64,000 nucleotides of DNA from a virus, in UHGV virus genome UHGV-0018639; one strand, given 5' to 3'. Numbering within the stretch: position 1 is the stretch's first letter; each line of letters opens with the position of its first letter. Shown here in pieces: positions 2,994 through 62,729 of the stretch. The notes beneath the pieces are model-generated. The model ran no database searches. It worked only from the letters and a program-made list of their open reading frames with translations, and was not told where the DNA came from. Both the position numbers and the translations under genes were made by a program.

Positions 2994-4021
2994 TGCCCGG
3001 ACTCGGACCCCAGATGATTCGCCCACGAATTGAGACACAAACTTGTTCATGGTGCGAGTCGCTTTTGGGAAGCGATGAATTTGCTTATACAAATTCTCCT
3101 TTCTATCCTAAAAAGCGCCTTCCGATGTGTAATTCGTGCATCAAACAGTATTTGGTTGAAAAAGATTTTCAATGGGATGCTATTGATCGCATTTGCCAGT
3201 GCGCCGACGTTCCGTTCGTCCCACGAGAATTTGAGCGAGTTCACAACGAGAAAGGTGATGATTGTTTTCCCATCTACGCGGCACTTTTTGCGACCTCTGA
3301 ATATGAGGGGCTTGGATGGGACAATTATTACAAGGCTTATAAACAATTGCGCGATAACGGCCAGTTGATTGATGAGCTTCCATTGCTAGCAGAAGACAAG
3401 CGCGCAAAATTGATCGACCGATGGGGCGCCAATTATGATGATGAGGCTTTGACATACCTTGAACAACTTTATCAAGGCTTACAGGCCACACAGAATATTG
3501 CAGGTGCTCTCCAAAGCGACCAAGCCTATAAAATTTGTAAGATTTCCTATGAGATTGACTGCCGCATTAGAGAAGGCGTTGATTTTGATAAGCTGTTAGG
3601 CTCTTATGATAAGCTTGTCAAGACAGCCGAATTTACACCGAAAAATGCGAAAAATGCAGCTGACTTTGATACCACAGGGGAATTGATTAAATTCTTAGAG
3701 AAAAAAGGCTGGCGTTGTAAATATTATGATGGCGTTACAAGAGATATTGTTGATGAAACAATCAAAAACATTCAAGCCTACAACCAGCGTCTTTATACAA
3801 ATGAAAGCGGCCTTGGTGAGGAAATAACTCGTCGCATTGAAGCCCTTGAACGTGCGAAAAAACTTGAGGGCGCGGAGCAGTCTTTCGAAGAGCGTTATTA
3901 TGGTGAAAGCACGGATGTTAGCGATAATGAAGCTGACCTCTATGAAACCGAAGGCTATAAGGAGCTTCTTTCAATGGACGGCGACGATTTTGAAGCAGAG
4001 GTTGAAGGTTATGACTCCTAA
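2993..4021 (+). CDS. hypothetical zinc-finger protein; by position a possible small terminase subunit
   Basis: ORF track 342 aa with CxxC...CxxC near the N-terminus. It lies immediately upstream of, and overlaps, terL exon 1. No sequence-level evidence for TerS. Confidence 0.5.
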   Translation: MPGLGPQMIRPRIETQTCSWCESLLGSDEFAYTNSPFYPKKRLPMCNSCIKQYLVEKDFQWDAIDRICQCADVPFVPREFERVHNEKGDDCFPIYAALFATSEYEGLGWDNYYKAYKQLRDNGQLIDELPLLAEDKRAKLIDRWGANYDDEALTYLEQLYQGLQATQNIAGALQSDQAYKICKISYEIDCRIREGVDFDKLLGSYDKLVKTAEFTPKNAKNAADFDTTGELIKFLEKKGWRCKYYDGVTRDIVDETIKNIQAYNQRLYTNESGLGEEITRRIEALERAKKLEGAEQSFEERYYGESTDVSDNEADLYETEGYKELLSMDGDDFEAEVEGYDS

Positions 4022-4364
4022 GAAAATTCCCCTTTTGTTAGAGAAAAAAGAAAATATGTTCCAAGCGCCCGATCGACCCGTGCGTGATGGCATTGAGCTT
4101 GAGAAGGGAGTCGCCCTTTCAGAGCAATATTTAGAAGAACATTTAGAGGATATTGAAAATGTAATGGGTACGTTTATTGCGTATCCTGACATTTATCTTG
4201 ATACGATAGCGACAGAGAACTCACCTTCTTTGTTTTTCTATCAGCGCATTACCTTGCGTGCCATTATGAGATTTAAGGAGATATATATCTGTGCCTGCCG
4301 CGCATACTCGAAGAGCTTTATCTCAATTTTGGCAATGATATTGGAATGTATTTTTATTCCGGGT
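4011..4364 (+). CDS. terL: terminase large subunit, exon 1 (118 codons, Walker-A-like CRAYSKS region)
   Basis: The ATG at 4011 overlaps the upstream stop, with a gaagg RBS. The exon ends at U4364 (..CCG GGU), predicted from P1/P10 pairing and from alignment of IFIPG|TRRFICAPNKK with the post-Walker-A region of T4 gp17. ORF track 3837..4400 reads on into the intron. Confidence 0.7.
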
Positions 4365-5584
4365 AAAATGTGTGCCCCCTTACTTCGTGAGGAGTATTGA
4401 ATAAGTTATCTTAAAGCTGGAAAACCGTAAAGTCTCTTATACCTTCAGGGTGCTTCTCTCAAAAAGGTTGCGAAAGTAGAAACAAATAAGAGAATGGCAT
4501 AAGGTGCAAACCTAAGTGCTGCTAATTGGCAATCAGCGACTAAAATAGAAAAAGGAGTATTTATAATGAGTGCAAAGAAAAAGACACATGAACAGTTTGT
4601 AAAGGATATTATAAATAAATATAATATACAAAAAGAGGATTTTACCTTTTTATCAGAATATCAAGGTTATGATAAGCCTATTATTTTTCAATGCAACAAA
4701 TGTGGAAAAATAAAGACTATTGTGGCTGGAGCTTTGCTAAGGACTTCGTCTCATAAAAAACACATATGTCCATGCTACGGTTACGCTCAAGAATGGCACG
4801 AAGAAAATCAATTTTTGCGAATTTGGATAAAAAAGCAATCTAAATATGATATAATAAAATATACTCCGGGGCTTTTAGAAATTCAACTAAAATGCAAAAA
4901 ATGTGGGACTTTTCAAAAACGCTCGGCTAAAAGTTTAGAGAAAAATGATGAGTGTTTGGGCTGTGAGAACAAATGTAATATTAAGAAACCGCAGCAAGTA
5001 TTTGAGCAAGAATTGAAAAATTTCTGTGGAGAAGAATATCAATTAGTTGGAGATTATAATGGATCTGATAACTATTGTCTATTGAGGCATACTCTTTGTG
5101 GGAAAATTTATCGAGCTAAGCCTCATTATCTTCTAACAGGAAAAGGCGGAACTTGTCCTATTTGCCAAATAAAATCAAAAGGAGAAAAAGTAATTGCTGC
5201 TTTTCTTGATAAAAAAAATATTGTTTACTATACACAATATAGATTAGATGAATTTCGGCGTGCACCATATGATTTCTTTTTACCAGACCATAATTTATTA
5301 ATTGAATTCCAAGGCACTCAGCATTTTCAGCCAGTTCCGCGTTTTGGAGGAGAATTGACTTATCAACGACAAAAAGAAGTTGATGAAAAAAAAGTAGAAA
5401 TAGCTAAAAAAGAAAATAAGCAACTACTCATTATAAATTACAATCAAATCGATGAAATAGAAACTATTTTAGCTCAACGACTATCCCTTTATGGGAGTAG
5501 CAATGATATTATTGCGAAACGATAACTATCTCTTAGGAGATAAAGATATAGTCTAATCTTATATGAAAATATAAGTCTTTTTTG
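4365..5584 (+). mobile_element. group I intron (1220 nt) interrupting terL, carrying a homing endonuclease ORF in the P8 region
   Basis: P-like ggttgcgaaag (4466-4476), Q-like ggtgcaaacc, R element tcagcgactaaaa (4534-4546), S element aagatatagtct (5540-5551), a P9 hairpin with GAAA loop, and terminal G5584. P1 is gggU(4361-4364):Gccc(4374-4377). P10 is acacg(5585-5589):ugugu(4369-4373). Splicing gives an in-frame 602-aa TerL. Confidence 0.7.
4566..5525 (+). CDS. intron-encoded homing endonuclease candidate: zinc-finger repeats plus C-terminal Vsr/DUF559-like PD-(D/E)xK motif (PYDFFLPDHNLLIEFQGTQH)
   Basis: ORF track 319 aa with its own RBS (aaaggag). It sits between the intron R and S elements. 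There are multiple CxxC pairs and a C-terminal motif resembling Vsr-like endonucleases. Confidence 0.65.
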   Translation: MSAKKKTHEQFVKDIINKYNIQKEDFTFLSEYQGYDKPIIFQCNKCGKIKTIVAGALLRTSSHKKHICPCYGYAQEWHEENQFLRIWIKKQSKYDIIKYTPGLLEIQLKCKKCGTFQKRSAKSLEKNDECLGCENKCNIKKPQQVFEQELKNFCGEEYQLVGDYNGSDNYCLLRHTLCGKIYRAKPHYLLTGKGGTCPICQIKSKGEKVIAAFLDKKNIVYYTQYRLDEFRRAPYDFFLPDHNLLIEFQGTQHFQPVPRFGGELTYQRQKEVDEKKVEIAKKENKQLLIINYNQIDEIETILAQRLSLYGSSNDIIAKR

Positions 5585-7039
5585 ACACGAAGATTTATTT
5601 GTGCCCCCAACAAAAAACAAGGCGCACAAATAGCTAAAGAAAAGATAAATGAAATTTATGACAAGTGGCCTCTTATAAGGCGAGAAGTGGTAAGAGGCGA
5701 TATTGACCCAATGCCGGGAAATTTTGGTTCAGATTATGTCAGCTTGACATTTCGTAACGGCTCTACATTTGAAGTTTGTGGTGCGTTGGAAAGCACCCGT
5801 GGATTGCGTAAATATGGTGGTTTGATAGATGAGATTCGTGACCATGAGGAACAGCCGATAAGTGAAATTGTCCTTCCTCTTCTCAATGTTTCACGCCGTC
5901 TTCCTGATAACACTGTAAATCCACGTGAACCGAACCAACAAACAATTTTTGCTACAAGTGCGGGCACTAAGATGTCATTTGCATATGACAAACTCATCTC
6001 GGTTTTTGAAAACTCAATAATTCTACCGAATCAATCATTTACATTCGGCTGTGACTATAGAGTCCCAATGATGCACGGACTTGTAGACCGTAAATACATC
6101 AACAATTTAAAAATGGACCCCTCTTTCAACGAAGAAAGCTTCGCTCGTGAATATATGTCCTTGTGGAGCGGGGCTTCTGACGAAAGTTGGTTTAATTTTA
6201 GCAAAATGGAAAAACATCGTAAAATAAAAAACCCAGAATTTCATGCGAATTTTAGAGCTGGAGTCAATCAATTCTACTTTATTTCGGTAGACGTAGCAAG
6301 ACTGGCCGGCTGTCAAACTGTTGCGTGTGTTTTTCGTGTAAATATTAGAAATGATAGATATTATGCAACGCTTGTAAATGTTATTGTACTTGGTAAGCAA
6401 ATGGAACTAAAAACATTTACTCAACAAGCAATTGATCTCAAAAAACTTATTAGGGACTATAAACCAAAAGAGTGTCTTATAGATACAAATGGTTTAGGTG
6501 TTGGCCTTGCCGATGAAATGATAAAAGTCCATTATGATGAACACGGTGAAATGCTTCCAGCATATGGTTTCTTCAATGATGACTCTTATAAAAAAGTACA
6601 GCCAAAAGACGCTATTTGTATCTTATATTCAATGAAAGCCAACGGCCCATTGAATAGTGAAATACATGGGACAACATATGCCCGCATAAATGGCGGTATG
6701 ATTCAGTTTCTAATAAAAGAGCAGGATGCGAAAATTGCTTTGCTCGCTACAAAGGTAGGACAGAAGATGAGTATTGAACAGCGCGTCAAGCGACTTATGC
6801 CGCATGAAATGACATCGAGCCTTTTTGAAGAAATGGCAAATCTTCGTTTGAAAAGAACAGGCTCTGGCACTGATATAGTGCTCGAACAAATCAATACTCG
6901 ATTCCCTAAAGATAAATATTCTGCTTTTTCCTATGGTGTTTGGCGTATCAAACAATTAGAGGATGAAGCAACTAAAAAGCGTCGGCGCCGCACACCCGGT
7001 GTAAAGCGCCAACTAACCTTTTTTTCAGGAGGTCGCTAA
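5585..7039 (+). CDS. terL: terminase large subunit, exon 2 (ATPase Walker B LIDEIRDHEE, motif III TSAGT, nuclease domain)
   Basis: ORF track 5582..7039. Walker B and the coupling motif are visible. Exon 2 starts at A5585 after terminal G5584. Confidence 0.85.
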   Translation, partial: TRRFICAPNKKQGAQIAKEKINEIYDKWPLIRREVVRGDIDPMPGNFGSDYVSLTFRNGSTFEVCGALESTRGLRKYGGLIDEIRDHEEQPISEIVLPLLNVSRRLPDNTVNPREPNQQTIFATSAGTKMSFAYDKLISVFENSIILPNQSFTFGCDYRVPMMHGLVDRKYINNLKMDPSFNEESFAREYMSLWSGASDESWFNFSKMEKHRKIKNPEFHANFRAGVNQFYFISVDVARLAGCQTVACVFRVNIRNDRYYATLVNVIVLGKQMELKTFTQQAIDLKKLIRDYKPKECLIDTNGLGVGLADEMIKVHYDEHGEMLPAYGFFNDDSYKKVQPKDAICILYSMKANGPLNSEIHGTTYARINGGMIQFLIKEQDAKIALLATKVGQKMSIEQRVKRLMPHEMTSSLFEEMANLRLKRTGSGTDIVLEQINTRFPKDKYSAFSYGVWRIKQLEDEATKKRRRRTPGVKRQLTFFSGGR

Positions 7040-16453: not shown

Positions 16454-18370
16454 ATGCCTACAAATAGGACAGTGTCTGGGACAATCAACCTAAAGGCGCT
16501 TTTGGATGTTAGTCAGATTAGGAAAGCGGCTAGTGATATTGAAAATGCGTTGAGTGGAGTTTCGCTTCCGAAGAATATTAGTTCTGATTTGACGAAGAAG
16601 TTAAATCAGATGAAGGGAGAAATGACTCGTCTTGATCAGATTCTTGCAGGCGATATTACGGCTGATAGCTCTAAAGAAGCATTGAATTCAGCTCAAAGGA
16701 TTCTCAAAGCTTATAGCGATATAAAAGTTGCAGTTGCACAAGCCGCCAATTTGTCAAATGCGCAACTTAAGAAACTTTTTCCTGAATCAGTAGCTGAAAA
16801 CATTGAGAAAGCAAATAGGGCGCTTGAGAAGTATAATTCTAATTTAGAGAAATATAATAGAGGCATTACTAGTAGAAAAGGCAATATAACAAAACAACAG
16901 AACCGTGAAGCTGAACTTCAACGAAAACTCGCGGCTGAACAAGCTAAACCAACAAATGCTACCGTCAATGGGCAAGTTTATAATGCAAAAGATTTGCGAG
17001 ATCAAGCAAGCGCAGCTCAGAAAGAGATAGATAATGCTCAAAAGAAAATGCAGCAGTGGTATAATGCCAAAGCTGGACGAGAGAATCTTTCCGAAGGGCA
17101 AAAACGTAAATCTAGCACTTATCGACAGATTGCTGATGAGTTAGAAGCAGCAAAGAAAAAACTGAAAGAATTTACAGATGCACAAGCTACTGTTCAAGAC
17201 TCGTCTGCAATAAGCAGCCTTATTAGTCAAATAACTACTGTGCAAGGGAAGATTAAAGATGCTCAAAAAGCATTACAAGATTTCCAAGCGAACAATAGTG
17301 GAACGGCTGACTTTTCAACATTGCGCGCTGAACTTGAAAAACTTGGCATTGATATGTCAAATTTGCCTCAAGATGTCGATGGTGCGAGACAGGCGATCGC
17401 TAAACTGACAAATGATGAACTATCCAAAATTCAGTCGCAAATCAGCGGCGTGGTTTCAGCCACTGATAAAGGCTCTGGTGCTTTTGATAATTATGCTAGC
17501 GGTGCAAATCGTGCGCGAGATGCTGTCCGTCAGCTAACAAATCAAGAGCGCGAACTTCAGCAGTTCCAGTCTCGTGTTGAATACTTCTTTGGTTTCAACA
17601 ATAGCGTTCAGCTTTTGAAAAATGCTGTGCGCGATGCTATTGACACAGTAAAAGACCTTGACGAGGCAATGACTGAGACTGCTGTTGTCACTGACTTTAG
17701 CGTTGGTGATATGTGGAAACAGTTGCCGAAATATACCGATGAAGCTAACAAGCTTGGCGCGACAGTAAAAGGCGCATATGAAACATTGACATTGTTCTAC
17801 CAACAGGGTTTGAATCAGAATCAGGCTTGGGATTTGGGTATTGAGACAATGAAGATGGCCCGTATTGCGGGATTGGACTATGCTAATGCCACTGATCTTA
17901 TGACTAGTGCCTTGCGCGGCTTCAATATGGAGCTAAATCAAGTTTCTTCTCAACGTGTCAATGACGTCTATTCTGAATTAGCTGCTATAACCGCTTCAGA
18001 CGTTGAAGAACTCGGTATTGCAATGAGCAAGACAGCGTCTTTGGCTCATTCTGCTAATATGGAATTTGAGACGACCGCGGCTCTGTTAACACAAGGCGTC
18101 GAAGCGACTCGCGAGAGTCCTGAAACTATTGGTACTAGCTTGAAAACTGTAATAGCTCGTTTTACAGAAGTAAAAGAGCTATTCACAAAAGATCAATTGA
18201 TGGGCACCGACAGTGAAGGCCAAGTTATCAATATAAATAAAATTGATACTGCCCTTCAGACGGTCGGTATTGATTTGAAAAAATTCTTACTCGGCGAGGA
18301 AGGTTTGGATGATGTTTTGCTCCAACTTTCCTCTCGTTGGAATACATTAGACTTAGCAACGCAGAGATAT
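16454..18370 (+). CDS. tail tape measure protein, exon 1 (639 codons, TP901-family core: ...ALQTVGIDLK...SRWNTLDLATQRY)
   Basis: ORF track 16454..18388. The exon ends at U18370. P1 is agauaU(18365-70):Guaucu(18379-84). The last 6 codons of the ORF track are intron-encoded. Confidence 0.75.
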
Positions 18371-44696: not shown

Positions 44697-44883
44697 TATA
44701 GCCCATTGTATGTTCTTTATTCAGCCTTTCTTGAATATTCTTATAAACTTGCGGGAATAAACTTGCTATCACAAACTCAAAAGAAAGTTCAAGCTCATCT
44801 GTGTTTCCATTATACGTTTTTTCTACTTGCTCAATTACTCGTTTTATGTGCATGAATCGAACCTTATCTAAATTTTCGTCCAT
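44629..44883 (-). CDS. hypothetical protein
   Basis: ORF track 84 aa. Confidence 0.4.
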   Translation of the reverse strand: MDENLDKVRFMHIKRVIEQVEKTYNGNTDELELSFEFVIASLFPQVYKNIQERLNKEHTMGYIEGYKAASAAMGIEDECGTTNN

Positions 44884-45492: not shown

Positions 45493-46002
45493 TCAAATTT
45501 TGAGTTCACAAATGTGCGCTTTTTCCAAAGTTTGGTGAACATCTATAAGGCGCTGATTACGAGAGCCACGGAATGGCAAAGTTAAATCACGCTGCTCAAG
45601 AATAAAAGGGCCATCTACCACAACATCGCAAAGTTGGAGTGTTGTTGAAATGCGGCGAGGGGGATTGAAATCCTCCCAGTCCAAGTGGTAGCCAGTATAG
45701 AGCCAAATGTCTTTATTAGGAAATTTTTCTTTGATTTCTCTTAACAACTTATAGATAGTATTGTTGTTTTGTGGCTCAAGTGGATGACCGCCAGAAAGAG
45801 TGATTCCTTTTATCCAAGGCTTTGAAAGAGCGTCAAATAGTTCTTCTTTCGCGGTGTCATCAAAAAGTTTACCTGCGCAGAAATCCCAAGTTTCAGGATT
45901 ATGACATTCTTTGCAATGGAGAGAACATCCTGAAACCCAAAGAACGACACGCACGCCAAGACCATTTGCGATGTCGCATTTTGTTATTTTGATATAATTC
46001 AT
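45493..46002 (-). CDS. nrdG: anaerobic ribonucleotide reductase activating protein (radical SAM)
   Basis: The GCSLHCKECHN CxxxCxxC motif. The start MNYIKITKCDIANG at 46002 overlaps the nrdD stop. Confidence 0.75.
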   Translation of the reverse strand: MNYIKITKCDIANGLGVRVVLWVSGCSLHCKECHNPETWDFCAGKLFDDTAKEELFDALSKPWIKGITLSGGHPLEPQNNNTIYKLLREIKEKFPNKDIWLYTGYHLDWEDFNPPRRISTTLQLCDVVVDGPFILEQRDLTLPFRGSRNQRLIDVHQTLEKAHICELKI

Positions 46003-46979: not shown

Positions 46980-47748
46980 CATATTATCCCATATCCCTAT
47001 GGGTACTGACTATATCTTCATTCCACTAAAAAGTGGAGTTGTCTTCCGCTTCGAGTGAGTGCCTATCTCTCACCCTACTCCCTTACATTCATCAGGGATA
47101 GTCGATACACTTCATTCATCATAATAAAAATTATAAGGAGTATTATTTGTCCGTTGCTGTAAAAGAAAGGTCCTGATACGATGTCTATCAATACCAGTTT
47201 TACGTTCGCATTCTCTCATTGACTTATAGTGAAAACGTTCTTTTGTCTCTTTATTTTCAGCAATTATCCAAATTCCACGCCCTTTATGCGGATTTATATA
47301 ATTGTTTTCCTGATAAGCCTTTCTAATATTTTCGCTGTGAGATACGGCCCGCAAATTAGAAAGTTCATTATGTGATTTATTTCCATCAATATGGTCTACA
47401 ACTGTACAATTATCAAGAAAAACTTCCGCCATAAGGCGATGAACGCGAGTTCGTATTCGATTGCCACCAAGACAAAGAACTACGTGTTGATACATATCAA
47501 TGCCAATATATGGACTAATTATTCTTCCCGTTTTAAAATTGATTATTTGAGCATCTTCATTTATACCAAATTGATTATTCAAACTTGGAATGGGCATAAA
47601 TTCTTTCATTATCTCACCTCCTTTTCATATTTATGATATATGATGAATTTTAGCACGGCCTCATCTGTTCTAGACCTAGCCGTTAGCCGCATTTGCGACA
47701 CCCGCGGGCGCGGTTCAAAAGATTTTATATGAGCTGCAGTTTTCACTT
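46980..47748 (-). mobile_element. group I intron (769 nt) in nrdD with an HNH homing endonuclease ORF
   Basis: On the - strand the exon 1 end ..ugu aug ggU(47749) joins ugc agg(46979..) to give CMG|CRSFL (the conserved NrdD MGCRSFL). P1 is uaugggU:Gcucaua (rc of ~47720-47726). P10 is cugca:ugcag. R-like gtatcgactatcc and S aagatatagtcag (rc of 46991-47003). P9 hairpin and terminal G46980. Confidence 0.8.
47112..47609 (-). CDS. HNH homing endonuclease (VDHIDGNKSHNELSNLRAVSHSEN)
   Basis: 165 aa with RBS aaggagg upstream. It lies inside the nrdD intron. Confidence 0.8.
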   Translation of the reverse strand: MKEFMPIPSLNNQFGINEDAQIINFKTGRIISPYIGIDMYQHVVLCLGGNRIRTRVHRLMAEVFLDNCTVVDHIDGNKSHNELSNLRAVSHSENIRKAYQENNYINPHKGRGIWIIAENKETKERFHYKSMRECERKTGIDRHRIRTFLLQQRTNNTPYNFYYDE

Positions 47749-48927
47749 ACCCATACAAGGATAACAACGACCCTTACCAGTTTTGTCTTTTTTTAATTCT
47801 AACATCATTTTTTCAGAAATAATATCAGGGACAAGACGCTTTGCTGTACATTTTGCTGCAAGTTCTGTTAAGTAAAAATACTTATCGCCCGGCTGTAAAT
47901 TATCAGGTTCAAGGACATAAAGTAACTTAGGAAATGCAGGCGTAATATAAACGCCTTTTTCATTCTTGAAACCTAAAATACGTTGTTTAATAAACTCCTC
48001 TATCAGCATTGCTAATTCATTCTTATATTCTTCTGTCTCGTTTAAATACATAAATACAGAAAGAAATGGTGCTTGACCATTTGTTGTTGTCATTGAATTG
48101 ACTTGATAGTTGAAAGTCTGAACAGCATCAACAACTTCTTTTTTTGTATCAAGTTGCGCATACTTATGCGCATTCTCATCGTCAAATCCCCAATCTTTAT
48201 ACTTCTTGAGATAAGCTTCATAAGAGCTTCTAACAAAAGGTGCAAGATGTGTAAGAGTAATAGTAGCACCACCATATGAAGAAGAAGCGACGCCAAGAAT
48301 TACTTGCGTTGCAATCGTAGAAGCTGTCAGAATTCTATGCGGCTTTTCAATTTTAACGTTATTAATTACAGTACCATTTTGAAGGACATCCTCTAAGTTA
48401 ATAAGATCGCAATTATGGAGGGTCTTCTGGCCGAAATAATCAATATCGTGGAAATGTATAATACCTTTCTCATGCGCGTCCACAATCTCAGGGGGAAGAA
48501 GAAATCGTTTAGAGATGTCTTCGCTAACAATACCGGCCATATAATCACGCTGTGTCGTTACAAGGTCGGCATTTTTATTTGAATTTTCAGCGTTCCAATA
48601 ATCACTTGTACCACTGATTAGTTCAAGTAAATCTTTGTCTGTTGTATTGCCTTCGCGCGCGAGTCTATGTTTATACCTGTATTCAACATAGCGCTCAGCC
48701 ACGTCTTTTCTTGAACTAGCCATAAGCCGCTCAACTACTAAGTCTTGAATTTCTTCAACGCTCAAATCTCTATTAAGCTTTTCTATTTGAGTAGCCACCA
48801 TTCGTGCCTTATTTTTGGCATAAGATGTTTCACGTCCATCTACTTCCAAAAAGGCTTTGAGAATGGCGACTCTAATTTTCTCTTTATCAAATGGAACCGT
48901 AGTTCCATCACGTTTTATGACGTACAA
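47749..48927 (-). CDS. nrdD: NrdD exon 1 (ATP-cone VIKRDGTTVPFDKEKI and N-terminal catalytic part; 393 codons)
   Basis: ORF track 47743..48927. The last 2 codons plus the stop of that ORF are intron-encoded. Confidence 0.8.
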
Positions 48928-50267: not shown

Positions 50268-51759
50268 TTACTCACCCCTTACATGAGTTGTTATACGGCC
50301 ATATTCATCAATATCTGTTATTTCTTCAACCAGATGGTATGGGGTTCGGGAATATTTCTTCGCCAGAAATCCATCATCCTTTCTAATGCCACATACGATT
50401 ATCTTGTTGCCACGTGAGAAAGTGCTGCGACTGATAACGTGTTTCTTCCCATCAGGCCCTCTCTCCGAAATTTGCTTATCATAATTAGCAAATGCTTCGC
50501 CAAAAATTTTGACCTGAACAACGCCATCTTTTGTCAATAACGAAACAATTTTCTTTGCCTTATCCCTATCCAATACAGTTCCGCAAATACGATGTATTCT
50601 ATAAATCGGAACCGGCGCGCTATCACTATCCTTGCCGCGCGGTTTGAAGTAAGTCTCAACATCAGGCTGCTCTTTCAGTTTGAAGAAGTTTGAAAAGCCT
50701 TGCGCACGTTCATCAACATTTTGAAGTTCATGTTCGTGGAAATAACATGAAACGCTATCCATCTCCCACTTGCTTATTGAACCAAGACAATATTTATTCC
50801 AGATATCTCGCGTTAATCGCTCATTCACGGTATCTAGCAACTCATCATGATTTTCTTTTATCCACTTGCGGACATTATCCATATATTTCTTATAAATTTT
50901 GTCCCAAGCCGTGATGTTAATTTTGAAGCCACTTTCAGTTTCATTGCTTGCGCTCAAACAGTCAAGTGAAAAATTCTTATCAAGGAAATTCAATGCGATA
51001 TTATCTATGCCATAGAATGATGTGTCTAACTTCATTTTCTTGAGATACTTTGTGAAGTTATAAACACGACGCTCAAAATCAAGATTTTCGGGAATCAACC
51101 CAAAGTTTATCAACATTGCCATATTCTGAAGAGTGATACGTTTCTTTGTGTCGCTAATCAGGCTGACATATTCGCGCATTAAATCTACTCTATCACCAAA
51201 TGCATCAAAAGCTCCGCATTTTATGAGGTTTATCATTTGTGGCTTGTTGATTTTTACTTTGGAAAGAAAATCGGAGATTGAGTTATAGGGTCGATTTGCG
51301 ATTATGGATTTAACGATGTCTTCGCCGACTTTGACGATACCGCTCATACCATAACGAATTGTTGAATTTTCAACATCAGGAGAGAAAGTAAAAGTAGATT
51401 TGTTGATATCTGGAGGAGAAACCGAAATACCGGCCATTCGCATTTTACCGATTGCTGATGCAATTTTGCCATAGTTAGTCGTTTTGACTTTTTTCTTTTT
51501 CTTTTTTACATCAATTTTTTCTTCTTCGTCTTCATCTTCGTCGTCATCTTCGGTATCATCAACAAATTCTTCAATACAGTTGTTATAACTATATTCAATA
51601 ATATCTTCTGGCGTTTCGTCATCGTTCTCATCATTTGATTCATTGCCGCCGCTATCGCTAATCAAACACGCGCAATTCCAAAAAATTGTTGGAAAACGAT
51701 ATGCAAGATTCATTTCCTGCAAAGCCACAAGCGAGTAGGAAAGAGTATGTGCTCGACAA
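50268..51759 (-). CDS. dnaE: DNA polymerase III alpha (DnaE-type) exon 2 (..CRAHTLSYSLVALQEMNLAYRFP.., acidic insert, HhH GISVSPPDINKS, OB domain)
   Basis: ORF track 50268..51728. The frame is open upstream to 51759. Exon 2 begins UUGU.. after terminal G51760. The joined GYSF|CRAHTLSYSLV matches DnaE GYGFNKSHSAAYALV. Confidence 0.8.
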
Positions 51760-52862
51760 CTTACCGCACATAGTTTCTTATGCCAGATTTACTCTGTTGC
51801 GGTCTGGACTATACCATCAATTTCATTGTTTCCAATGAAAAAGTCCTTATTATAGTCTCTGAACGTTTTTCTTATCTCAATATATTTTCTATTCATACCA
51901 AAAGGCTTATTATAAACTAGAGCGATTAGTTTTAGGATATTGAACTGATTAGCGGTTTCAACTCTATATAAGCTATCTTCAGTTTTTCTTATATGTAAAT
52001 CTTCCATAAAGAAATTTTCTACTAAGATTTTTTCAATCCATTTGATAAATTCTTCAGATGCTGATACTATATAAAATTGAGCACCGCCATAAGAAGTTTT
52101 ACTGACACACCCATCACCGTCTATTATACCACGAATAATGTAAGGCAAATATCGCTTTTCTTGCTCATACAATTGCGGCGCCGGTATAATATATGTTTTA
52201 TTCTTTATTATACCATAACGGGCAGCCTCAGCTTGAAGACCCGGCCTATTTATCAATACCCTATATCGAGTTTGCTTTCCAGCTTGAGGATAGGCCTTAT
52301 AAGTTATTCCAATTCCTTTAGCTATAAAAGCAATAACATCTTCGTCCACCATATCCAACCCTAAGCCATCTCGATCGCTCAATAGATATCCATCCGTAAG
52401 CAGTAGCCCGATTAGATATGCATCGAACGGACTTTTGATTTCAGATAACGAATAGGTATATCCTCGACGATTATCTTGCGCTTGCCGTATAATTTCTTGA
52501 TATTCATCTGGATAATACTTTTTTACCTTGTCGGTTATAGACTTCTTTGTTTTATAACCATATCGACCCATTAGCTCTGAAACCGATGCCCCATTCTTAT
52601 ATTCTTCAACTAATTTTAGTTCATCTTCTTTTGATATTTTCTGATAACCCATAGTATATCCCTCCTAAGAATAAGTAGCCCTATTCAAATAGAAATACAC
52701 TAAAATAAGAAACTTCGCTGCGGATTATCCAATTCTAAATGATTTTACTATACCCTCTCTCTTTCTGAGAGGCCGCGATATTATTGCTAATATCGTTTAG
52801 TTATTTAGACTCTAAGGAAGTCCCCGCAATTTCAAGGATTTATACTCGTCTTGTATTAGTCA
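51760..52862 (-). mobile_element. group I intron (1103 nt) in dnaE with a LAGLIDADG homing endonuclease ORF
   Basis: - strand: an 8-bp P1 uacucguU(52870-52863):Gacgagua (rc of 52848-52841). P10 is uugu:acaa. P element aaauugcgggga (rc of 52821-52832). Q element aauccgcagc (rc of ~52716-52725). S gguauaguccag (rc of 51803-51814). P9 hairpin and terminal G51760. Confidence 0.8.
51789..52652 (-). CDS. LAGLIDADG homing endonuclease (two motifs LIGLLLTDGYL and IRGIIDGDGCV) with N-terminal HTH
   Basis: 287 aa with RBS aggaggg. Its C-terminal end overlaps the intron S/P9 region. Confidence 0.8.
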   Translation of the reverse strand: MGYQKISKEDELKLVEEYKNGASVSELMGRYGYKTKKSITDKVKKYYPDEYQEIIRQAQDNRRGYTYSLSEIKSPFDAYLIGLLLTDGYLLSDRDGLGLDMVDEDVIAFIAKGIGITYKAYPQAGKQTRYRVLINRPGLQAEAARYGIIKNKTYIIPAPQLYEQEKRYLPYIIRGIIDGDGCVSKTSYGGAQFYIVSASEEFIKWIEKILVENFFMEDLHIRKTEDSLYRVETANQFNILKLIALVYNKPFGMNRKYIEIRKTFRDYNKDFFIGNNEIDGIVQTATE

Positions 52863-55360
52863 AACGAGTACCCGCGCTGAACTCTGAACAAAACGTCCCA
52901 TACATAATGGGCAAAAGTCATATCACAACCTTTTTCTTTTGCATTTTCAAAATAGGCTTTTTCACATTCATCAAAGAGTTTGCCTTGTTTTTTTGCAATT
53001 GCCTTTCGACATTTATCTGCAAAAGTCAGATTATTCCCTCCGAGTCTTTCTTCCTGCAGAAGCTGCATCATTCCTTCTTGACTCTCACATATGCCACTCG
53101 TTATCGCATTATGTCCAATTAACCATTTTATATCTTCATTTTTTAATCCATATTGAATCATTTCGTCTCGCCATTCATTGATATTCAAACGATATCTTGC
53201 CCACATATCAAGTGGCTGCTCAGCTCCTTTTTCAGGAGCCATTAGACGAATTACTGAATTCAAAACAGCTAATTCACTAACGTTTTTAGGATGAGTTAGC
53301 GCTATGCCAGAAATGCCGCTCGGTTGTTCCATTTGAAACAAACTGGATATCTTATGATTCCAAACCATTTCCCACATTTCTGGTGCAGTTCGTTCAAGAT
53401 TATATATGCCAATTACACTTTCATAAGTTTCACGTAATGTTGGCTTTCGCTCTATATAACCATAATCACATAACAAATCTAGCTCATTGTGTATTTTATC
53501 AAGAGCTTCAATTGACAACATATCAATTTTGATCAGCGATGCGTCCTCCGCATCATGGAGTTCAAAAGCCGTAATGACCGTGCCATCAGGCGCGCGTGTT
53601 AGCGCTGTCGATTCCGTAAAAGGCTCGTCAACGAAGATCACTCCACCGGCGTGGACGCCAATGCCACAAATTAACCCCTCAATTTTTGAAGCAACTTCCC
53701 AAACATCACTGTAGGTTTTCATTGCTTCAACAAATTGCTTTACTGGCTTAAAACCTTTATCTTCATCACCCTCTATACATTGGGTAAGTGAGCGAAGTTG
53801 CCCGCGATCAGCTGGAATCAGAGATGCCAAATAGGATGCTACATCAACATCAATTCCCAAGCCACGGCAGGCCGTTAGAATTGCTGATTTAGATTTTTCT
53901 GTTTTGAATGTAATAACATTCGCAACTCTGTCTTCCCCATAAAACTCACGGAATTTCTGTAAAACTTGTGCACGACGTCCGCCTTCAATATCAGTATCAA
54001 CGTCCAATACCGACGCACGTTCGGGATTAAGAAAACGCCAATGAAATACTTGAGTTTCTTCTTGAATTGGATTTATCTGTGTTATATCTAATGCATATAA
54101 CAAAATAAATCCTGCACCTGAACCACGCCCCGGCCCAACAAGAGAACCAGCTTCCCAACATAAATCAATATTTTTCTGCAGATTCAGAAAATAAGTCGAC
54201 CAATGCGTGTGATTTGTTATCGACGAACGCCATGTATCATCAAGACAAATATTTATCTCATCATACGCTCGTTTGTTCTGCAAACCCGGCTTCCGTTGGA
54301 TGCCGTCAATAATCGCCCAAACCAGTTTTCTATCACCCCAATAATCAGAGTTATAGAAAGTTTCTAAATAAGGAATTTCATGTTTGAGAATATCATATGC
54401 TGCCTCATCTTCAGGAAATGTTTTCCAATAAAGTTCTGGAATTTTTAAGGGGCGCATTAGTGAAAAATCTTCACACATTTCACCTATCTTGAGAATATTA
54501 TAATATGCAACTTGAAGTTGTTCTTCGGTGAAATAATCGAAATACTCTTCTATTTCTTTCGTATTCATAAGATACGTAGTAGCATAGAAATCATCTACTT
54601 CTCGTTCACCATTCTGTGCATTGAGATATGCCTTATGAATCGCGCGATCTTCTTTTTTGAGATAATGGCTATCAGTTGTTATAACATAAGAAATGTCGTA
54701 TTTAGCTGATAATTCAAGCAACTTTTTATTTACATAAATTTGTTCTTTGTTATGACTTGGTTGCATTTCAAAAAAGAAATTACCGTGCCCAAAAAGTTTA
54801 TCCAAAGATAAAATCCAATTTTCAATTTTGCTATTGAGCGAGCTATCATTTCGTGCTTTGAGAAGCTGAGTAGGAAGACAGCCACCGAGGCAAGCTGTCA
54901 TTCCCACAATGTGTCCCGGATTAGCCCCTACGATTTCAAACAAATCACTATAATAAGTTGGCATACGACGCATACCACGCGCCATATAACTACGTAATCC
55001 TGCACGAGTAGATAATTCTCTAATTTGTTTATGCCCAATCGCGTCTTTTGCTAACAAAATAAAGTGATAATATTTATCTTGTCCTGTAATAAAATTCGAT
55101 GCATTTAACCCATTTCGACAAAGATAAATTTCATTTCCTTGAATAAATTTGAAATCAGGGTATTTTTCTTTTACTTTTTTATAATACTTTTCTGCCTTAA
55201 TCGCGCCAGATATTGACTCATGGTCTGTAAGAGCGACGACTTTATGACCCAACTCGATGGCGCGATCAATTAGGTCTGAGACTTTTATTATACAGTCTCG
55301 AAGCCTTTCATTAGAATAATCCGAGTGGTTATGTAATGACCCCGGATACGGAATATTCAA
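52863..55360 (-). CDS. dnaE: DNA polymerase III alpha (DnaE-type) exon 1 (PHP domain LHNHSDYS.., GRGSGAGFILLYALDITQINP, ..RGYSF)
   Basis: ORF track 52856..55360. The exon ends at the second U of UUU (52863); the D codon and stop of the ORF track are intron-encoded. Confidence 0.8.
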
Positions 55361-55423
55361 CTTATCACCCCTTTCCTTTATTTTCTAATATAATTATACC
55401 AAAAAATTCCCCAAAAGTCAAAC

Positions 55424-55891
55424 TCAAAAACTCCACTCCGCGTTTTCAACTTCAACGTCTACGATTTGCAATTGTGGGGTATAATTTCCAAGCCATTCGT
55501 TGACATTCGGCTTGCCCACAATCGTTAAACACATTTCAGGCCATTTGTGAAGTTTTTCAATCAAATCTTTCGCACGGAACTTTATGTAAGTAATTCCATT
55601 CTTTTCAATTCGTATCGTGTCTTGACTCTTACCAATTATCTTTACATCCGCAGGTCTTATGTAAAGGTTTGTTATCGCCATAAGACTTTGAGGATTGTTC
55701 TGACCCCAAACTCTCTCATATCGCGCGAGGTCGAATATGATGTTGGATATATCATTGTCGCTTGCTTTGCGGACAAAATCGACGTCGTAATTATTATCGC
55801 CAAAATCGTAAGCCACGAGTTGAGTGTTAGATAAGGCAAGAAGTTCATTATAGCTATTAGCTGGAATGGCAAACCCAGCTGCATTAGCGTG
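55424..55891 (-). CDS. recJ: RecJ-like DHH-family exonuclease, exon 2 (starts HANAAGF.. = DHHA1 GGGHxxAAG motif)
   Basis: ORF track 55424..55918 (GTG start). The frame is open upstream to 55891. Exon 2 starts CAC GCU after terminal G55892. Confidence 0.65.
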   Translation of the reverse strand, partial: HANAAGFAIPANSYNELLALSNTQLVAYDFGDNNYDVDFVRKASDNDISNIIFDLARYERVWGQNNPQSLMAITNLYIRPADVKIIGKSQDTIRIEKNGITYIKFRAKDLIEKLHKWPEMCLTIVGKPNVNEWLGNYTPQLQIVDVEVENAEWSF

Positions 55892-56135
55892 CGTGTAATC
55901 CCTTGTTTCCAAGGGCACTGACTATTTCTTACATATGTAAAACATATGAATACCCATTTCGGGCGGCGTACCAATAGCCGTCCTACTTCTCCGATTCGAG
56001 AATAGTCGATACAGGTTCCTTGTCGTATGACAAGTCTTCCCACGAGATTAGCATATCTTTCGACTTAGCTTTCCTCGTTAGCCGCGAATGCGACCCCACT
56101 GGTAAGTGGAAAAGGTATAACGGGCCAATTCCTCA
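55892..56135 (-). ncRNA. small ORF-less group I intron (~244 nt) in the recJ-like gene
   Basis: - strand: exon 1 ..GAU UAC GUA CAG GGU(56136) then an in-frame UGA, and exon 2 CAC GCU AAU GCA GCU GGG, give ..DYVQG|HANAAGF (DHHA1 motif). R-like guaucgacuauuc (rc of ~56006-56018). S-like aagaaauaguca (rc of ~55919-55930). P9 is cccuug-gaaa-caaggg, then terminal G 9 nt later. P1 is gggU:Gccc (4 bp). Confidence 0.6.
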
Positions 56136-57383
56136 ACCCTGTACGTAATCAAATAAACTAGTATCTAACAAATAATCCTTGAACGACGTAAGCGCGCTCT
56201 GTGAAAGACCTCTAATACTTCCCTTTATCATTCCATCGGGGCCTTCGCGGCCTATCATTGTAGGCTTATGATACCGCGCGCTAAGCTGTGTTGCAATCAA
56301 ACCATTCAACTCAGGCGGGAAGTTATCATCGTCATCAAGTTTTACAAATAAAATTTTGTTTTCAAGTAAATCATACTTATGTATCTTATACTCAAGTTGC
56401 TCAGTTGCTTTTTCTTTTGCTTTATCTTGGTGCGACTTCGCGTTCGTACATTCGCGTGCACTTTCGATTGCAAGCTTTTCAAGAGTCCCCTTCGCACCAC
56501 GCTTGCCGCTAGGCACAAGTTCCTCACCAGCAACAACTGCACGATAGAGACGTTTTTTCTCATCTTGTGAACCTACACGTATCATTGCGTTGATAAGCGG
56601 CGTTATGTAAAATGCGACAGTTGTTGGATTGACCTCGCCGCCCATTGAGTAGGACTGCTTTTCAACAAGAGTTTTGAGGAAAAAGTTTCGTATGTTGGCA
56701 CAACCTTGCTGGACAATGAACTGATTTTCGTATGATAGCATACTTACCATATCACTTATAATACCCAACGCCGCTAAGTCAATATATTCCCAAGCCCAAT
56801 TATGGCCAAACGCATCATCAAGCGCACGGCAGAACTGCCACACGACACCAGCGCCGCACAGGTCTTTGTTCTGATAAGCGGGGCTTGTCTGATTGTTTAT
56901 TAGAATCATATTAGGCGGAATTTCGCTTGTGGGTTCTAATTCGTGGTGGTCGATGCAGAGCACGGGACAGTCTAACTGTTTGATATACTCACCATCGTTA
57001 GTTCCCGCGTCCGGGACTATGACACCGCTCCAACTATGTTCAAGCAACTTATCCATCACATCACTACAACCGTGCTGTTTGCCGCTGTGTATTATCTGTA
57101 TAATATGCTTTACGGGATTGAGTCGCTTTATGTATTGATAAATAATGCCGCTTGACGTCAAGCCGTCCGCATCACAATCACAAATTAGCCCCAGTGGATT
57201 TTCATCATTCAAGTTTTGTCTGATAAAATCAATACCTTCATCTATATTATCCAGCGCGCGGTAACTCTGTAAGCACGACTCATCAGGATTCAAGAACAGA
57301 TCAACGTCTTCAATTCCTCTCAATCGTAAAATTTGTTCTCCATAGTTTTCATATATTCCATCGTTTGTCAATTTATATTTCAC
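56136..57383 (-). CDS. recJ: RecJ-like DHH phosphoesterase/exonuclease, exon 1 (DCDADGLTS, IDHH motifs)
   Basis: ORF track 56133..57383. DHH motifs I-III are visible. Confidence 0.7.
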
Positions 57384-60550: not shown

Positions 60551-60600
60551 TTTCTCACTCCTTTCATATATAAATATTATATCACAATTTTTTTAAAAAG

Positions 60601-60640: not shown

Positions 60641-60660
60641 CGTGAGCAGTTATACAATAT

Positions 60661-61118
60661 TTAGTTGCTCTTCTCCTTGAGAAGGTCTTCCATTTCAAGA
60701 TTGACAAGATTGAGCAAATCAACTTGATCTTCAGTGGCTTCGCTGAGCTTCATCGGATGACCAAAAACCATTTCGATCTTTTTGGAAATACGACGAGCCA
60801 TATCAGCATCGGCATTTTCGCCTGTGCCGACAAGCTTGACCCAAAGGTCTTGCGCGTGGTTGCGAACAGTTATGTAGTTAAGAGCTTCCTCACTCTTGAT
60901 TATAACATTATCCACCGCAGAACCGCCGCTCACTTCAATCTCCTTATCTATTGCGCGACCTACCGCGTCTTCAAGATAAGAATAACCAAAAGGAAGGACA
61001 GGGTCAAGGAAACGATATCGACTACCCGCGGTAATAGTGGGAGTAGCGCGAGTTATCAAGTGTCTTTCCCAGCCTGTTTTGTCATTCCACTCTTTAGTAA
61101 TGACGCCTATAATATCAA
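60661..61118 (-). CDS. Sak4-like (AAA_24) ssDNA-annealing ATPase, exon 2 (approximate 5' boundary); ..FDIIGVITKEWNDKTGWERHLITRATPTITAGSRYRF..
   Basis: ORF track 60661..61059. The frame is open upstream to the homing endonuclease stop at 61156. The exon 2 start is placed at ~61118 by homology reasoning and is uncertain by a few nt. Confidence 0.5.
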
Positions 61119-62191
61119 CACATTTTGTTATCGTAAAGCTTTTTATCTTTACTTCTTACTCTTGATTTTGAGCAAGTTCAGCATATCTTTTTTCCTCTTC
61201 TCCAGAGGAATAGAGTCTCGTGGATTTTATATCATAAAAGTTTTTCATTGCTTGATATTTTCTTTCCATATAAATAGAATTGGGCACATACAGAATCTCA
61301 AAAAGTCTTAAGATAGTGTCTTTTTTATAAACTTGTATTGTATAAAAATGGTCGCCTTGACTGAGCGTCGCTGTGCTGGTCGAAAGAGAGGTAATAATAC
61401 CATATTTATTCAGAAGAACTTGCCGCATCCATTCAATAACTTCTTTTCTTGCTCCACAAATATACCAATTATAATGATATTTTTTATAATCAGTCCAAAT
61501 ACATCCATCTCCATCAAAATATCCTCGAATATAAGAGATAAAATATTGTTCATCAAGAAAAGTCGGCGGTGTTAGAGTAAAAGTTTTACGAGGTATTATT
61601 CCATAATGGGCTAAATCTTGTTTGATAGTATGACTACAAACTCTTAGCCGGCTATACTCACAACCTGAATTATTTGTATAATGCTGAATAGGTCCCTCAT
61701 ATTTTAGTTCTTCTTTTATCTTATACAATATTTCTTCATCGGATCTTTGAATATCTATTGTAAAATGATTCGTATCTTTTGATACTCCGCCATCGGAAGC
61801 TAAAAATCCAAGAATATAAGCCATATTATGAGATTGTATCTTGAAATAATCGTCATTAACATTATAAGCTCGACATTCTTTTGCAGCTTCTTGCCGATTA
61901 CGAACCTTTACTCCCCATTTTTTCAAGTATCTTTGAATTGTCGCTCCTGAAGCTCCTCCAACATCTCGGCCAATAGCATTTACGCCTCTTTTTAGAACTG
62001 TATAATTATAAATTATAAATTCTTTTTGTTCATCTGTAAATGAAATAGATTTACCCACTCTGGGTTCCTCCTTTTATGTTTATCAATCTATGCGTTGCGC
62101 GTGTCGGAACTTTTACACTCCGACTTCCGCTCTGATTCCCATCTCAGGGTTCCAGATTTTTACTCTAATTTAGATATTTGTTTCCAAATAA
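61119..62191 (-). mobile_element. intervening sequence (probable group I intron, boundaries approximate) in the Sak4-like gene carrying a LAGLIDADG homing endonuclease ORF
   Basis: The N- and C-terminal halves of a Sak4-like ATPase flank the homing endonuclease gene. U/G-rule-compatible splice pairs exist: U62192 with G61119, or U62191 with G61121. The core shows P/Q-like variants aaucuggaac and gaaucagagcgg. No canonical R/S was found and P1 was not convincingly identified. Confidence 0.45.
61156..62058 (-). CDS. LAGLIDADG homing endonuclease (LGFLASDGGV and IRGYFDGDGCI) with N-terminal HTH
   Basis: 300 aa with RBS aaaaggagg. It is in the same frame as downstream exon 2 but separated by its own stop. 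Confidence 0.8.
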   Translation of the reverse strand: MGKSISFTDEQKEFIIYNYTVLKRGVNAIGRDVGGASGATIQRYLKKWGVKVRNRQEAAKECRAYNVNDDYFKIQSHNMAYILGFLASDGGVSKDTNHFTIDIQRSDEEILYKIKEELKYEGPIQHYTNNSGCEYSRLRVCSHTIKQDLAHYGIIPRKTFTLTPPTFLDEQYFISYIRGYFDGDGCIWTDYKKYHYNWYICGARKEVIEWMRQVLLNKYGIITSLSTSTATLSQGDHFYTIQVYKKDTILRLFEILYVPNSIYMERKYQAMKNFYDIKSTRLYSSGEEEKRYAELAQNQE

Positions 62192-62729
62192 ATGTCCCAT
62201 TGAGACTATTGACAACTTTTAGGCATCTAGGATTGAGGTCAGGTTTATACCCAACTATAGTTCCCTTATCATCAACTTCCTCTTTCAAATGAGAAGTCAA
62301 AATAAGACCATAACCAAGCATTGTAATTCTGCGAAGAGTGCGCTCAAATTCTTGAGACAGAGACTTATAACCTGCGCCATAAGGAATGTCACCAATCTTC
62401 TGAACGCCAGCCTGTGCACAAATATACTGTTCGCACAAATCCCAAGCAATGGCAACTGTATCAAAACATATCGTCTTATACATTTGCTTTGCTTCAGGTT
62501 TTTCAAGCTGGCGGCAGATGATTTTACAATCACTCCATTTTTCAATGGGCTGAATCATTGCTCCCGGACGAGCATTAGTGCCCATCTCAAAAGCAAGAAT
62601 TAAAGAATCCTTCGCAGTTGTGCAAAATTCCGTTTTTCCGATCTTAGGCTCTCCAGCAAGAAGCACATACTTGCCAGACAAATTTCTCGGAACAACGCTC
62701 GGTTGAATAGATAATATATCAATAGCCAT
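62192..62729 (-). CDS. Sak4-like (AAA_24) ATPase, exon 1 (Walker A LLAGEPKIGKT), approximate 3' boundary
   Basis: ORF track 62160..62729. The last ~10 codons of the ORF track are probably intron-encoded. Confidence 0.5.

Follow-up and report, generated by a model that had tools for sequence, protein, structure and literature searches.

Six probable group I introns in packaging, tail and replication genes of an uncultured phage, one of them from a family unseen by the Rfam model RF00028

The stretch of DNA analysed here, called the window, comprises 64,000 nucleotides (nt) of the virus genome UHGV-0018639. Six of its genes, encoding the terminase large subunit (terL), the tape measure protein, NrdD, DnaE, a RecJ-like protein and a Sak4-like ATPase, each very probably hold one group I intron of the phage IA type, and splicing would make each gene whole. 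Direct observations are the interruptions themselves (within 4011–62729, a range bounded by the start codons of terL, ATG at 4011, and Sak4, ATG at 62729) with their base-exact ends, the core motifs, the helices and their covariation, the intact endonuclease open reading frames (ORFs) and the intron-less alleles. The predicted exons and introns are given below with matches to PHROG and Pfam protein families and to the Rfam group I intron model RF00028.

4011–4364, plus strand: terL exon 1, ending ATT CCG GGT (IPG); phrog_15503 26–115
4365–5584, plus strand: predicted terL group I intron, 1220 nt; RF00028 30.6 bits, E 6e-4, at 5460–5575
5585–7039, plus strand: terL exon 2, starting ACA CGA AGA (TRR); phrog_15503 119–213; phrog_2, terminase large subunit
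16454–18370, plus strand: tape measure exon 1, ending AGA TAT (RY); PhageMin_Tail
18371–19532, plus strand: predicted tape measure group I intron, 1162 nt; RF00028 sub-threshold on both sides of the ORF
19533–25655, plus strand: tape measure exon 2, starting ATT GCA ACT (IAT)
47749–48927, minus strand: nrdD exon 1, ATP-cone and NRDD 1–262, ending TGT ATG GGT (CMG)
46980–47748, minus strand: predicted nrdD group I intron, 769 nt; RF00028 20.9 bits at 47173–46987
46002–46979, minus strand: nrdD exon 2, starting TGC AGG (CR); NRDD 264–562, Gly_radical
52863–55360, minus strand: dnaE exon 1, PHP, DNA_pol3_alpha and finger, ending TCG TT
51760–52862, minus strand: predicted dnaE group I intron, 1103 nt, phase 2, inside a Phe codon; RF00028 15.2 bits at 52828–52677 (P4–P6)
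50268–51759, minus strand: dnaE exon 2, HHH_6
56136–57383, minus strand: recJ-like exon 1, DHH, ending CAG GGT (QG)
55892–56135, minus strand: predicted recJ group I intron, 244 nt, ORF-less; RF00028 model 1–253, 30.9 bits, E 2.4e-6, narrow scan
55424–55891, minus strand: recJ-like exon 2, starting CAC GCT (HA of the HANAAG motif); RecJ_OB
62203–62729, minus strand: Sak4-like (AAA_24) exon 1, ending AAT AGT CT; phrog_124; AAA_24 3–156
61121–62202, minus strand: Sak4 group I-like intron, 1082 nt, from the intron-less allele and covariation
60661–61120, minus strand: Sak4-like exon 2, starting T GTT GAT, (L)VD

The intron-less alleles of relatives decide the question; the Rfam test alone would have misled. 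An uninterrupted allele of each of the six genes was found in close relatives, namely IMG/VR contigs of 75–132 kilobases (kb) from metagenome 3300045988 with flanking exons of ~83–99% nucleotide identity, and in these the exons abut exactly at the predicted junction. Junctions were first predicted by hand from sequence, and 200-residue junction peptides were then run against the related loci; those of the tape measure protein, NrdD, DnaE and RecJ are ungapped across 600 nt in one or more close relatives, with 90–100% amino acid (aa) identity. Comparison by blastn with the close relatives returned window-specific insertions, with flanks abutting in the relative, for nrdD, dnaE, recJ, Sak4 and the tape measure gene. 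Splicing in silico restores the reading frames and completes single Pfam domains across three junctions (AAA_24, NRDD and PhageMin_Tail). A sequence-only reading of this DNA had proposed six interrupted genes over the same span, each with restored protein continuity. The intron-less alleles and profile continuity bear out the first proposal, and the in-frame junctions, contiguous junction peptides and completed Pfam domains the second.

In terL, the intron-less allele of contig 159535 (locus L002) reads ...ATTCCGGGA ACTCGTAGATTT, corresponding to IPG|TRRFICAP, and therefore fixes the intron at 4365–5584; the intron, absent from L002, is present in L001 and L003 at 90% identity. Its guide sequence UGUGUGCCC lies at intron positions 5–13, with P1 formed by GGGU/GCCC including a U.G pair and P10 by ACACG/UGUGU. 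The intron also has an R-like element, CAACGACUA, and an S element, GAUAUAGUC (5545–5553), after which come a GAAA-looped P9 hairpin and, at 5584, the terminal G. Another junction, IPGK-I-FICAP via the repeated TGTGCCCCC, was refuted by the intron-less allele; the repeated stretch is the guide sequence. Terminases of isolated phages align with spliced TerL over aa 46–583 without a break; identity is 40.8% for Geobacillus virus E3, 39% for Alicyclobacillus phage KKP_3916 and 37% for Enterococcus phage H1. The tape measure intron is absent in L175, L177 and L178, where the junction peptide is contiguous at 94–97%, and blastn places the insertion at 1158 nt with a gap of 3 in the relative. PhageMin_Tail covers 2–201 of 201 positions once the exons are joined. 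P1 is AGAUAU/GUAUCU with a U.G pair, P10 is UUGCAA/UUGCAA, and RF00028 scores 18.4 bits at 18399–18564 (P4–P6) and 21.5 bits at 19316–19524.

Among the replication genes, Pfam NRDD runs over 1–262 in ORF 48927–47743 and continues over 264–562 in ORF 46982–46002; in spliced NrdD it covers 1–562 in a single stretch (594 bits). The insertion is exactly 769 nt with gap 0 in L051, L052, L131, L171, L172 and L174, the junction is contiguous with L051/L171 at 100% aa identity, and the intron has a P1 that includes AUGGGU/GCUCAU with a U.G pair and a P10 of UGCAG/CUGCA. The dnaE intron is absent in L131, L144, L173 and L174 (blastn insertion of 1104 nt, gap 1 in the relative), and GYSF|CRAHT, the peptide across the junction, runs unbroken in L131/L174 (96%) and L144/L173 (90%). 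The same intron occurs at the same site, with 71–88% identity, in L136, L138, L145 and L151. Its P1 is GUACUCGUU/GACGAGUAU with a U.G pair, its P10 UUGU/ACAA and its S-type element UGGUAUAGUCC. For recJ, an exact 244-nt insertion (gap 0) separates the window from L131, L144, L173 and L174, where the junction is contiguous at 94%. An RNAalifold consensus of this intron with the same-site introns of L171, L172 and L166 contains 72 pairs, of which 19 show compensatory changes; among its helices are P1 (splice-site U paired to G), P2–P6, P7.1, P7.2, P8 and P9.

Features of group I introns recur across the set. All six have U at position −1 and a terminal G, at boundaries that the intron-less alleles fixed independently. 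A P1 helix with a U.G pair is likewise present in all six, five found by automatic search (terL, tape measure, nrdD, dnaE and Sak4) and that of recJ via RNAalifold (columns 6–17). In five, a P10 of 4–6 base pairs (bp) with the first 3' exon bases lies directly 5' of the P1 strand, the canonical layout of a guide sequence. The canonical S element (G/A)A(A/U)AUAGUC (RAWAUAGUC) occurs in the terL, tape measure, nrdD and recJ introns. A GATATAGTC match at 58944 (plus strand, inside minus-strand dnaB) and a related match at 12891 were dismissed as chance, six matches being found against 2.6 expected. The IA label follows the helix layout, with P7.1/P7.2-type extensions, and not a subtype model; additional helices between P7 and P3' are typical of phage IA introns. 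Insertion sites lie in strongly conserved motifs, including GYSF|CRAH in DnaE, QG|HANAAG in RecJ and CMG|CRSF in NrdD, the kind of site that homing endonucleases usually target.

Several results weigh against assigning all six to functional group I introns. At the RF00028 gathering score of 50 bits none of the six is matched in the whole window, not even the ORF-less recJ intron (30.9 bits). A narrow RF00028 scan of the Sak4 intron gave no match, nor did its family, and the group I assignment of this intron comes from the structure and covariation worked out in this analysis. The recJ intron has no obvious P10 in the pairing search used for the other five. Splicing and endonuclease activity are predictions from sequence; some Bastillevirinae introns do not splice in vitro, yet splice in vivo (PMC11878797). 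RF00028 does give sub-threshold matches (15–31 bits) to five of the six, covering P4–P6 and/or P7–P9. A permissive scan of the whole window missed recJ, dnaE and Sak4, and recJ and dnaE surfaced when narrower regions were scanned. Endonuclease ORFs split the core in five introns, and RF00028 is documented to match phage introns split in this way only in part (PMC11878797). The Rfam check that had been proposed for the six intervals thus ended with none at the gathering score and five below it. Group I hallmarks had been claimed for five introns, and P1, the U and G ends and the sub-threshold matches support this; the sixth, that of Sak4, had been left unassigned and is group I-like too.

The Sak4-like gene is uninterrupted in L174 (KVVNSL|VDVIGVI), relative to which the window carries an exact 1082-nt insertion with gap 0. 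Only one choice of boundaries keeps both frame and protein, and it places U at −1 and G at the intron's end. AAA_24 matches the spliced product over 3–195 of 195 positions with 136.6 bits, against 111.9 bits for exon 1 alone. The exact excision in L174 and the U and G ends, together with the lack of a start codon or ribosome-binding site at the start of exon 2, speak against an interruption that is not a ribozyme, be it a LAGLIDADG cassette splitting the ATPase gene into two translated pieces or some other intervening sequence, whose helices would then have been over-interpreted. Such an explanation could draw on the failure of RF00028 to match this intron or 20 of its family members, on a P1 of just 4 bp and on the position of the ORF inside the proposed core. 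It is nevertheless very unlikely: contiguous-core members of the family covary strongly in eight helices and show the P3/P7 crossing, and a member in L151 splits dnaE precisely at KVKTTNYG|KIA, where the window is uninterrupted.

As a group I-like intron, the Sak4 element would contain P1 (GUCU/GGAC, with a U.G pair), P2 with a GAAA loop, P3 (UAGAG/CUCUA), P4 (UCUGG/UCAGA), P5 (CCC/GGG), P6, P7 (GCAUA/UAUGC), P8 (CCUCU/AGAGG), P9 (CUUGCUC/GAGUAAG), P9.1 (GUAAAG/CUUUAC) and a P10 adjacent to the P1 strand. Its 3' end resembles the second intron in L151 dnaE, the core of which is contiguous and which itself has U at −1 and a terminal G; RF00028 gave no match to this contiguous core either. The two introns share the conserved single-stranded segments AAUCAGAG, GCAACGCAUAG, CCACGAG, AAAAGAUAUGCUG, GAUAAAAAGC and GAUAAC, and the helices between them differ by compensatory changes. 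Comparison with L151 and with other family members led to GCAUA/UAUGC as P7 in place of an initial ACUCU/AGAGU. The LAGLIDADG ORF sits between P7 and the CCACGAG segment, before P3', and its 3' end overlaps P3', P8, P7' and P9.

A pattern built from two conserved segments found this Sak4-type family in at least 120 IMG/VR stretches. In an alignment of 87 distinct contiguous-core sequences with the ORF-deleted Sak4 intron, RNAalifold recovered P3, P6, P7.1, P8, P9 and P9.1, and P4, P5 and P7 were placed by register. The helices are 78–100% paired, compared with 13–56% when the 3' partner is slid by 1–2 columns and a mean of 52–80% with shuffled partners, and carry 5–28 additional pair types. 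Every helix is thus far above the slid and shuffled controls, and P3–P9.1 covary strongly. The 5' strand of P7 lies inside P3 and its 3' strand outside, which is the P3/P7 pseudoknot of group I introns. P7 is GCAUA/UAUGC and not GACUA/UAGUC, with the first G-C pair, the expected guanosine-binding pair, kept. At the gathering score RF00028 detected none of 20 family members and did detect four other, neighbouring introns. Some IMG/VR contigs carry two or three group I introns within 0.5–1.7 kb, in which RF00028-positive introns (85–106 bits) adjoin RF00028-negative ones of the Sak4 type; the positions concerned are as follows.

L200: 4945–5231, 5600–5875 and 6610–6651
L202: 3394–3434 and 3624–3845
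L252: 1252–1292 and 1486–1704

The newest group I intron database was seeded with RF00028, and the Sak4-type family may be under-represented in it for this reason. A wider claim is put forward tentatively, as one that is possible but doubtful in its entirety: that Sak4-type introns are a widespread group I class with P7 GCAUA/UAUGC that RF00028 does not see, that surveys seeded with RF00028 undercount it if subtype models miss it as well, that recJ and sak4 are unrecorded hosts, and that this Bacillota clade is an intron hot-spot.

Intact ORFs for putative endonucleases stand behind Shine-Dalgarno sequences in five of the six introns; the recJ intron has none. They are listed here.

4566–5525, plus strand: terL intron ORF, 319 aa; zinc-ribbon repeats and a putative C-terminal Vsr/PD-(D/E)XK-like domain
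18573–19405, plus strand: tape measure intron HNH ORF, 277 aa; HNH_3 E 1e-16, NUMOD4 E 4e-7, phrog_59 E 5e-62
47112–47609, minus strand: nrdD intron HNH ORF, 165 aa; HNH_3 E 2e-8, 34.1 bits (above cut-off), phrog_59 E 1.5e-24
51789–52652, minus strand: dnaE intron LAGLIDADG ORF, 287 aa; LAGLIDADG_3 E 7e-10, 39.4 bits, phrog_4645
61156–62058, minus strand: Sak4 intron LAGLIDADG ORF, 300 aa; LAGLIDADG_3 E 5e-13, 49.6 bits, in two stretches, phrog_4645 E 3e-48

By profile matches, the ORFs would comprise one moderately supported Vsr/PD-(D/E)XK-like, two HNH and two LAGLIDADG enzymes. The three families agree with the sequence-only reading, the Vsr-like assignment through PHROG 559, and so does the distribution of introns over both strands and over structural and replication genes (terL and tape measure on the plus strand, the other four on the minus strand). 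Its count of four introns with endonuclease genes has to be raised to five, both the dnaE and the Sak4 ORF matching LAGLIDADG_3 (Pfam cut-off 22.5 bits). The terL ORF matches phrog_559 (E 9e-48) and phrog_9084, annotated as homing endonuclease; PHROG 559 is annotated with a VSR endonuclease fold and occurs in terL introns of Bastillevirinae (PMC11878797). The ORF had no match in Pfam or NCBIfam and no single-sequence match in the PDB, and a profile of its C-terminal domain gave 3R3P, 'Mobile intron protein', as the best PDB match at a weak E of 0.048. Four endonuclease ORFs had no match in NCBIfam. In the tape measure intron, HNH_3 reaches 60.6 bits (Pfam cut-off 24.8), and the ORF likely starts at ATG 18573 behind GAGGTG, the mechanical ORF beginning at TTG 18494. 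The 3' end of the dnaE ORF overlaps the R element GUUCAGAGACUA, and the Sak4 ORF has a GTG start behind AAGGAGG.

LAGLIDADG_3 also occurs in inteins, and nrdD, dnaE and terL are classic intein hosts, so that inteins, or else group II introns, might be considered. Both have almost no probability and were ruled out by reading frames and domain content: the upstream exon frames all end at stop codons inside the insertion, the endonuclease ORFs lie in separate frames with their own ribosome-binding sites, and Pfam profile searches found no Hint domain in the window proteins. The introns gave no match to RF00029 and contain no reverse transcriptase or maturase ORF, and they start with AAAAU, UUGCA, AAGUG, UGACU, UGAGG and CAAUG, as opposed to the GUGYG...AY ends of group II.

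An endonuclease-like ORF of 282 aa is also found outside the introns, free-standing at 42977–43825 (minus strand) between the genes for a xanthine/uracil permease and a nucleoside 2-deoxyribosyltransferase, and matches Pfam DUF7487 and phrog_3339 'homing endonuclease'. The window-specific insertion that holds it, 813 nt at 42979–43791, is absent from contigs 158127 and 159535 (L051 and L052) and therefore represents a seventh mobile insertion in the window.

Intron content varies among contigs with exons ~83–99% identical, and the five near-identical genomes have at least ten occupied intron sites in total. The state of each window site in the four relatives is given below.

terL site: occupied in the window, 158127 and 159271; empty in 159535; 162796 not covered
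Tape measure site: occupied in the window; a homologous intron at or next to the site in 159271; empty in 158127, 159535 and 162796
nrdD site: occupied in the window; empty in 158127, 159271 and 159535; region divergent in 162796
dnaE site: occupied in the window; dnaE divergent in 158127 and 159271; empty in 159535 and 162796
recJ site: occupied in the window, 158127 and 159271; empty in 159535 and 162796
Sak4 site: occupied in the window; 158127 and 159271 not covered; empty in 159535 and 162796

Such differences between nearly identical genomes indicate that the introns have moved recently. The recJ and terL introns are kept at 90–94% in independent contigs, which argues against one or more introns being decayed and non-splicing, with pseudogenes in a defective genome, or the contig being mis-assembled. 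The metagenomic source, the low Rfam scores and the reading of splicing from sequence would leave room for this, but the interrupted genes are essential (terL, tape measure and dnaE), all exons are intact and in frame, and core motifs and endonuclease ORFs are intact as well. An assembly artefact is unlikely because the junctions are base-exact relative to other contigs, and the explanation as a whole is highly improbable beside that of intact group I introns.

Relatives carry insertions at further sites. In terL, an additional insertion of ~1.2 kb lies at codon 96 (window position 4297) in L001 (3491–4698) and L002 (3364–4571) and is lacking in the window. Another of ~1.2 kb in L003 (4797–6003; window position 5636) stands 17 codons past the window's intron, and L003 terL thus has twin introns flanking a micro-exon, each with a PHROG-559-like ORF. 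A second recJ site in exon 1 (window position 56760) is filled by a 995-nt insertion in contig 159535 (L131 336–1332 / L174 9005–10001). More distant relatives (~65% TerL identity) have further terL sites, and in some of them the nrdD and dnaE sites of the window are occupied as well. Most of dnaE exon 1 and the intron region (window 51561–55376) has no nucleotide match in contigs 158127 and 159271 and only ~32% aa identity to the window's DnaE (L171 5268–8668, L172 3862–7273), between flanking genes that are 86–90% identical in nucleotides, which suggests that much of the polymerase gene was replaced. Contig 159271 (L176 4492–5330) also has an 837-nt insertion at a tail-gene boundary, window position 14887 (genes 14831/14846), that the window lacks and that may be another free-standing endonuclease.

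According to the proposed mechanism, each intron would fold in the transcript and P1 would present the exon-terminal U, in its U.G wobble, to the core. Exogenous guanosine bound in P7 would attack the 5' splice site, P10 would align the 3' exon, and the terminal G would serve exon ligation to give an uninterrupted reading frame. In a mixed infection, the endonuclease would cut the intron-less allele of a related phage, and recombinational repair would copy the intron in; homing by the intron endonucleases is the proposed cause of the patchy intron presence among near-identical relatives. The window offers a clean case for natural intron homing, with base-exact boundaries, at least two structural subtypes, three endonuclease families and matched intron-plus and intron-minus alleles in sibling genomes of the same metagenome (IMG 3300045988). 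A scan at the Rfam threshold would report zero introns where the window has six, a concern for phage annotation, in which terL, dnaE, nrdD and tape measure genes that are split are wrongly called as fragments. Estimates of intron prevalence are also affected, one whole intron family being unseen by RF00028. The intron-less target sequences are ready substrates for characterising new homing endonucleases.

According to protein profiles, the plus strand of the window carries a structural module (terminase, portal, capsid, tape measure and tail genes), and the minus strand a module for replication and nucleotide metabolism (NrdD/NrdG, DnaE, RecJ-like, primase, DnaB and Sak4-like). TerL is nearest to those of Geobacillus virus E3, Alicyclobacillus and Enterococcus phages, and the window would therefore come from a large siphovirus-like, uncultured phage of Bacillota, the host being suggested by TerL similarity only. 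From the relatives, the complete genome is estimated at about 126–132 kb. The first 25 kb of the window had a sole megablast match against INPHARED (50,697 phage records), 34 nt in the terL intron core, and on this query no annotated close relative was found. The segment, P7–P9 of the terL intron at 5543–5576 (plus strand), is identical at 34 of 34 nt to Flavobacterium phage FPSV-D18 (MW442830, 48159–48192), a Bacteroidota phage that probably has a related intron core there. Just 5' of the packaging genes, at 1104–2564 (plus strand), lies the gene of a 486-aa protein, the C-terminal part of which matches the phage sigma factor family phrog_5767 (E 4e-10). The minus strand further contains unusual phage cargo adjoining nrdD/nrdG and the gene of a dUTPase-domain protein.

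41721–42983, minus strand: Xan_ur_permease, full length, E 4e-54
44868–45461, minus strand: formate/nitrite-transporter-family protein, E 9e-22
43792–44349, minus strand: nucleoside 2-deoxyribosyltransferase

This neighbourhood suggests a nucleotide-salvage module that includes membrane transporters.

The T4 td, nrdB and nrdD (sunY) introns and those of Twort have IA architecture, extra helices between P7 and P3', looped-out endonuclease ORFs and hosts in nucleotide metabolism or replication, the nrdD group I intron of T4 being known. The window introns share the IA architecture with its extra helices, the looped-out endonuclease ORFs and the nrdD host, a likeness in layout. T4 has three introns in 169 kb, whereas the window has six, in six genes and 64 kb, including the tape measure gene, recJ and sak4. 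No report of recJ or sak4 as intron hosts was found in a non-exhaustive literature search. Group I introns in terL are known from the literature in Lactobacillus phage LL-H, Moonbeam and SIOphi.

Bastillevirinae (SIOphi, Moonbeam and phiNIT1; PMC11878797, PMC4299906) likewise infect Bacillota and carry several group I introns, located in terL and in replication genes, and their terL introns share the PHROG 559 endonuclease with that of the window (PMC11878797). They are, however, myoviruses with a PolA-type polymerase and introns in Pol and TerL (up to six in two genes), unlike the window with its DnaE-type polymerase and one intron in each of six genes. The C-terminal domain of the terL ORF matches I-Bth0305I (PDB 3R3P) over nearly its full length, at an E of only 0.048, and contains a D...E.xG.QH-type motif; the N-terminal zinc-ribbon repeats are left uncovered. 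Bacillus cereus group prophages (PMC2504315) also have a group I intron within the tape measure gene of a Bacillota siphovirus, a likeness of host gene. The crAss-like Zeta and Jug phages are metagenomic phages that resemble the window in a very high intron load in core genes, including terL, nrdD and polymerase (PMC7886860, PMC12880540), nrdD introns being known in Jug phages (PMC12880540). They are Bacteroidota phages with inteins mixed in, and Jug introns are mostly ~206 nt and ORF-less, in contrast to the window, in which five of six introns are ~0.8–1.2 kb with endonuclease genes and inteins are absent.

Six introns in 64 kb amount to one per 10.7 kb. This exceeds T4, SPO1, Twort, every Bastillevirinae genome listed in PMC11878797 (maximum six introns per genome) and the average of Jug phages (18.5 introns per 360–402 kb; PMC12880540), and is comparable to crAss-like Zeta phages (up to 14 introns and three inteins per 145–192 kb genome; PMC7886860). 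The density had been called exceptional, which holds against T4, SPO1 and Twort and has to be tempered by Zeta, which is comparable (PMC7886860), and by Jug, which is high too (PMC12880540). The density of the window is at the top of the known range, for a phenomenon that is itself already well known in phages.

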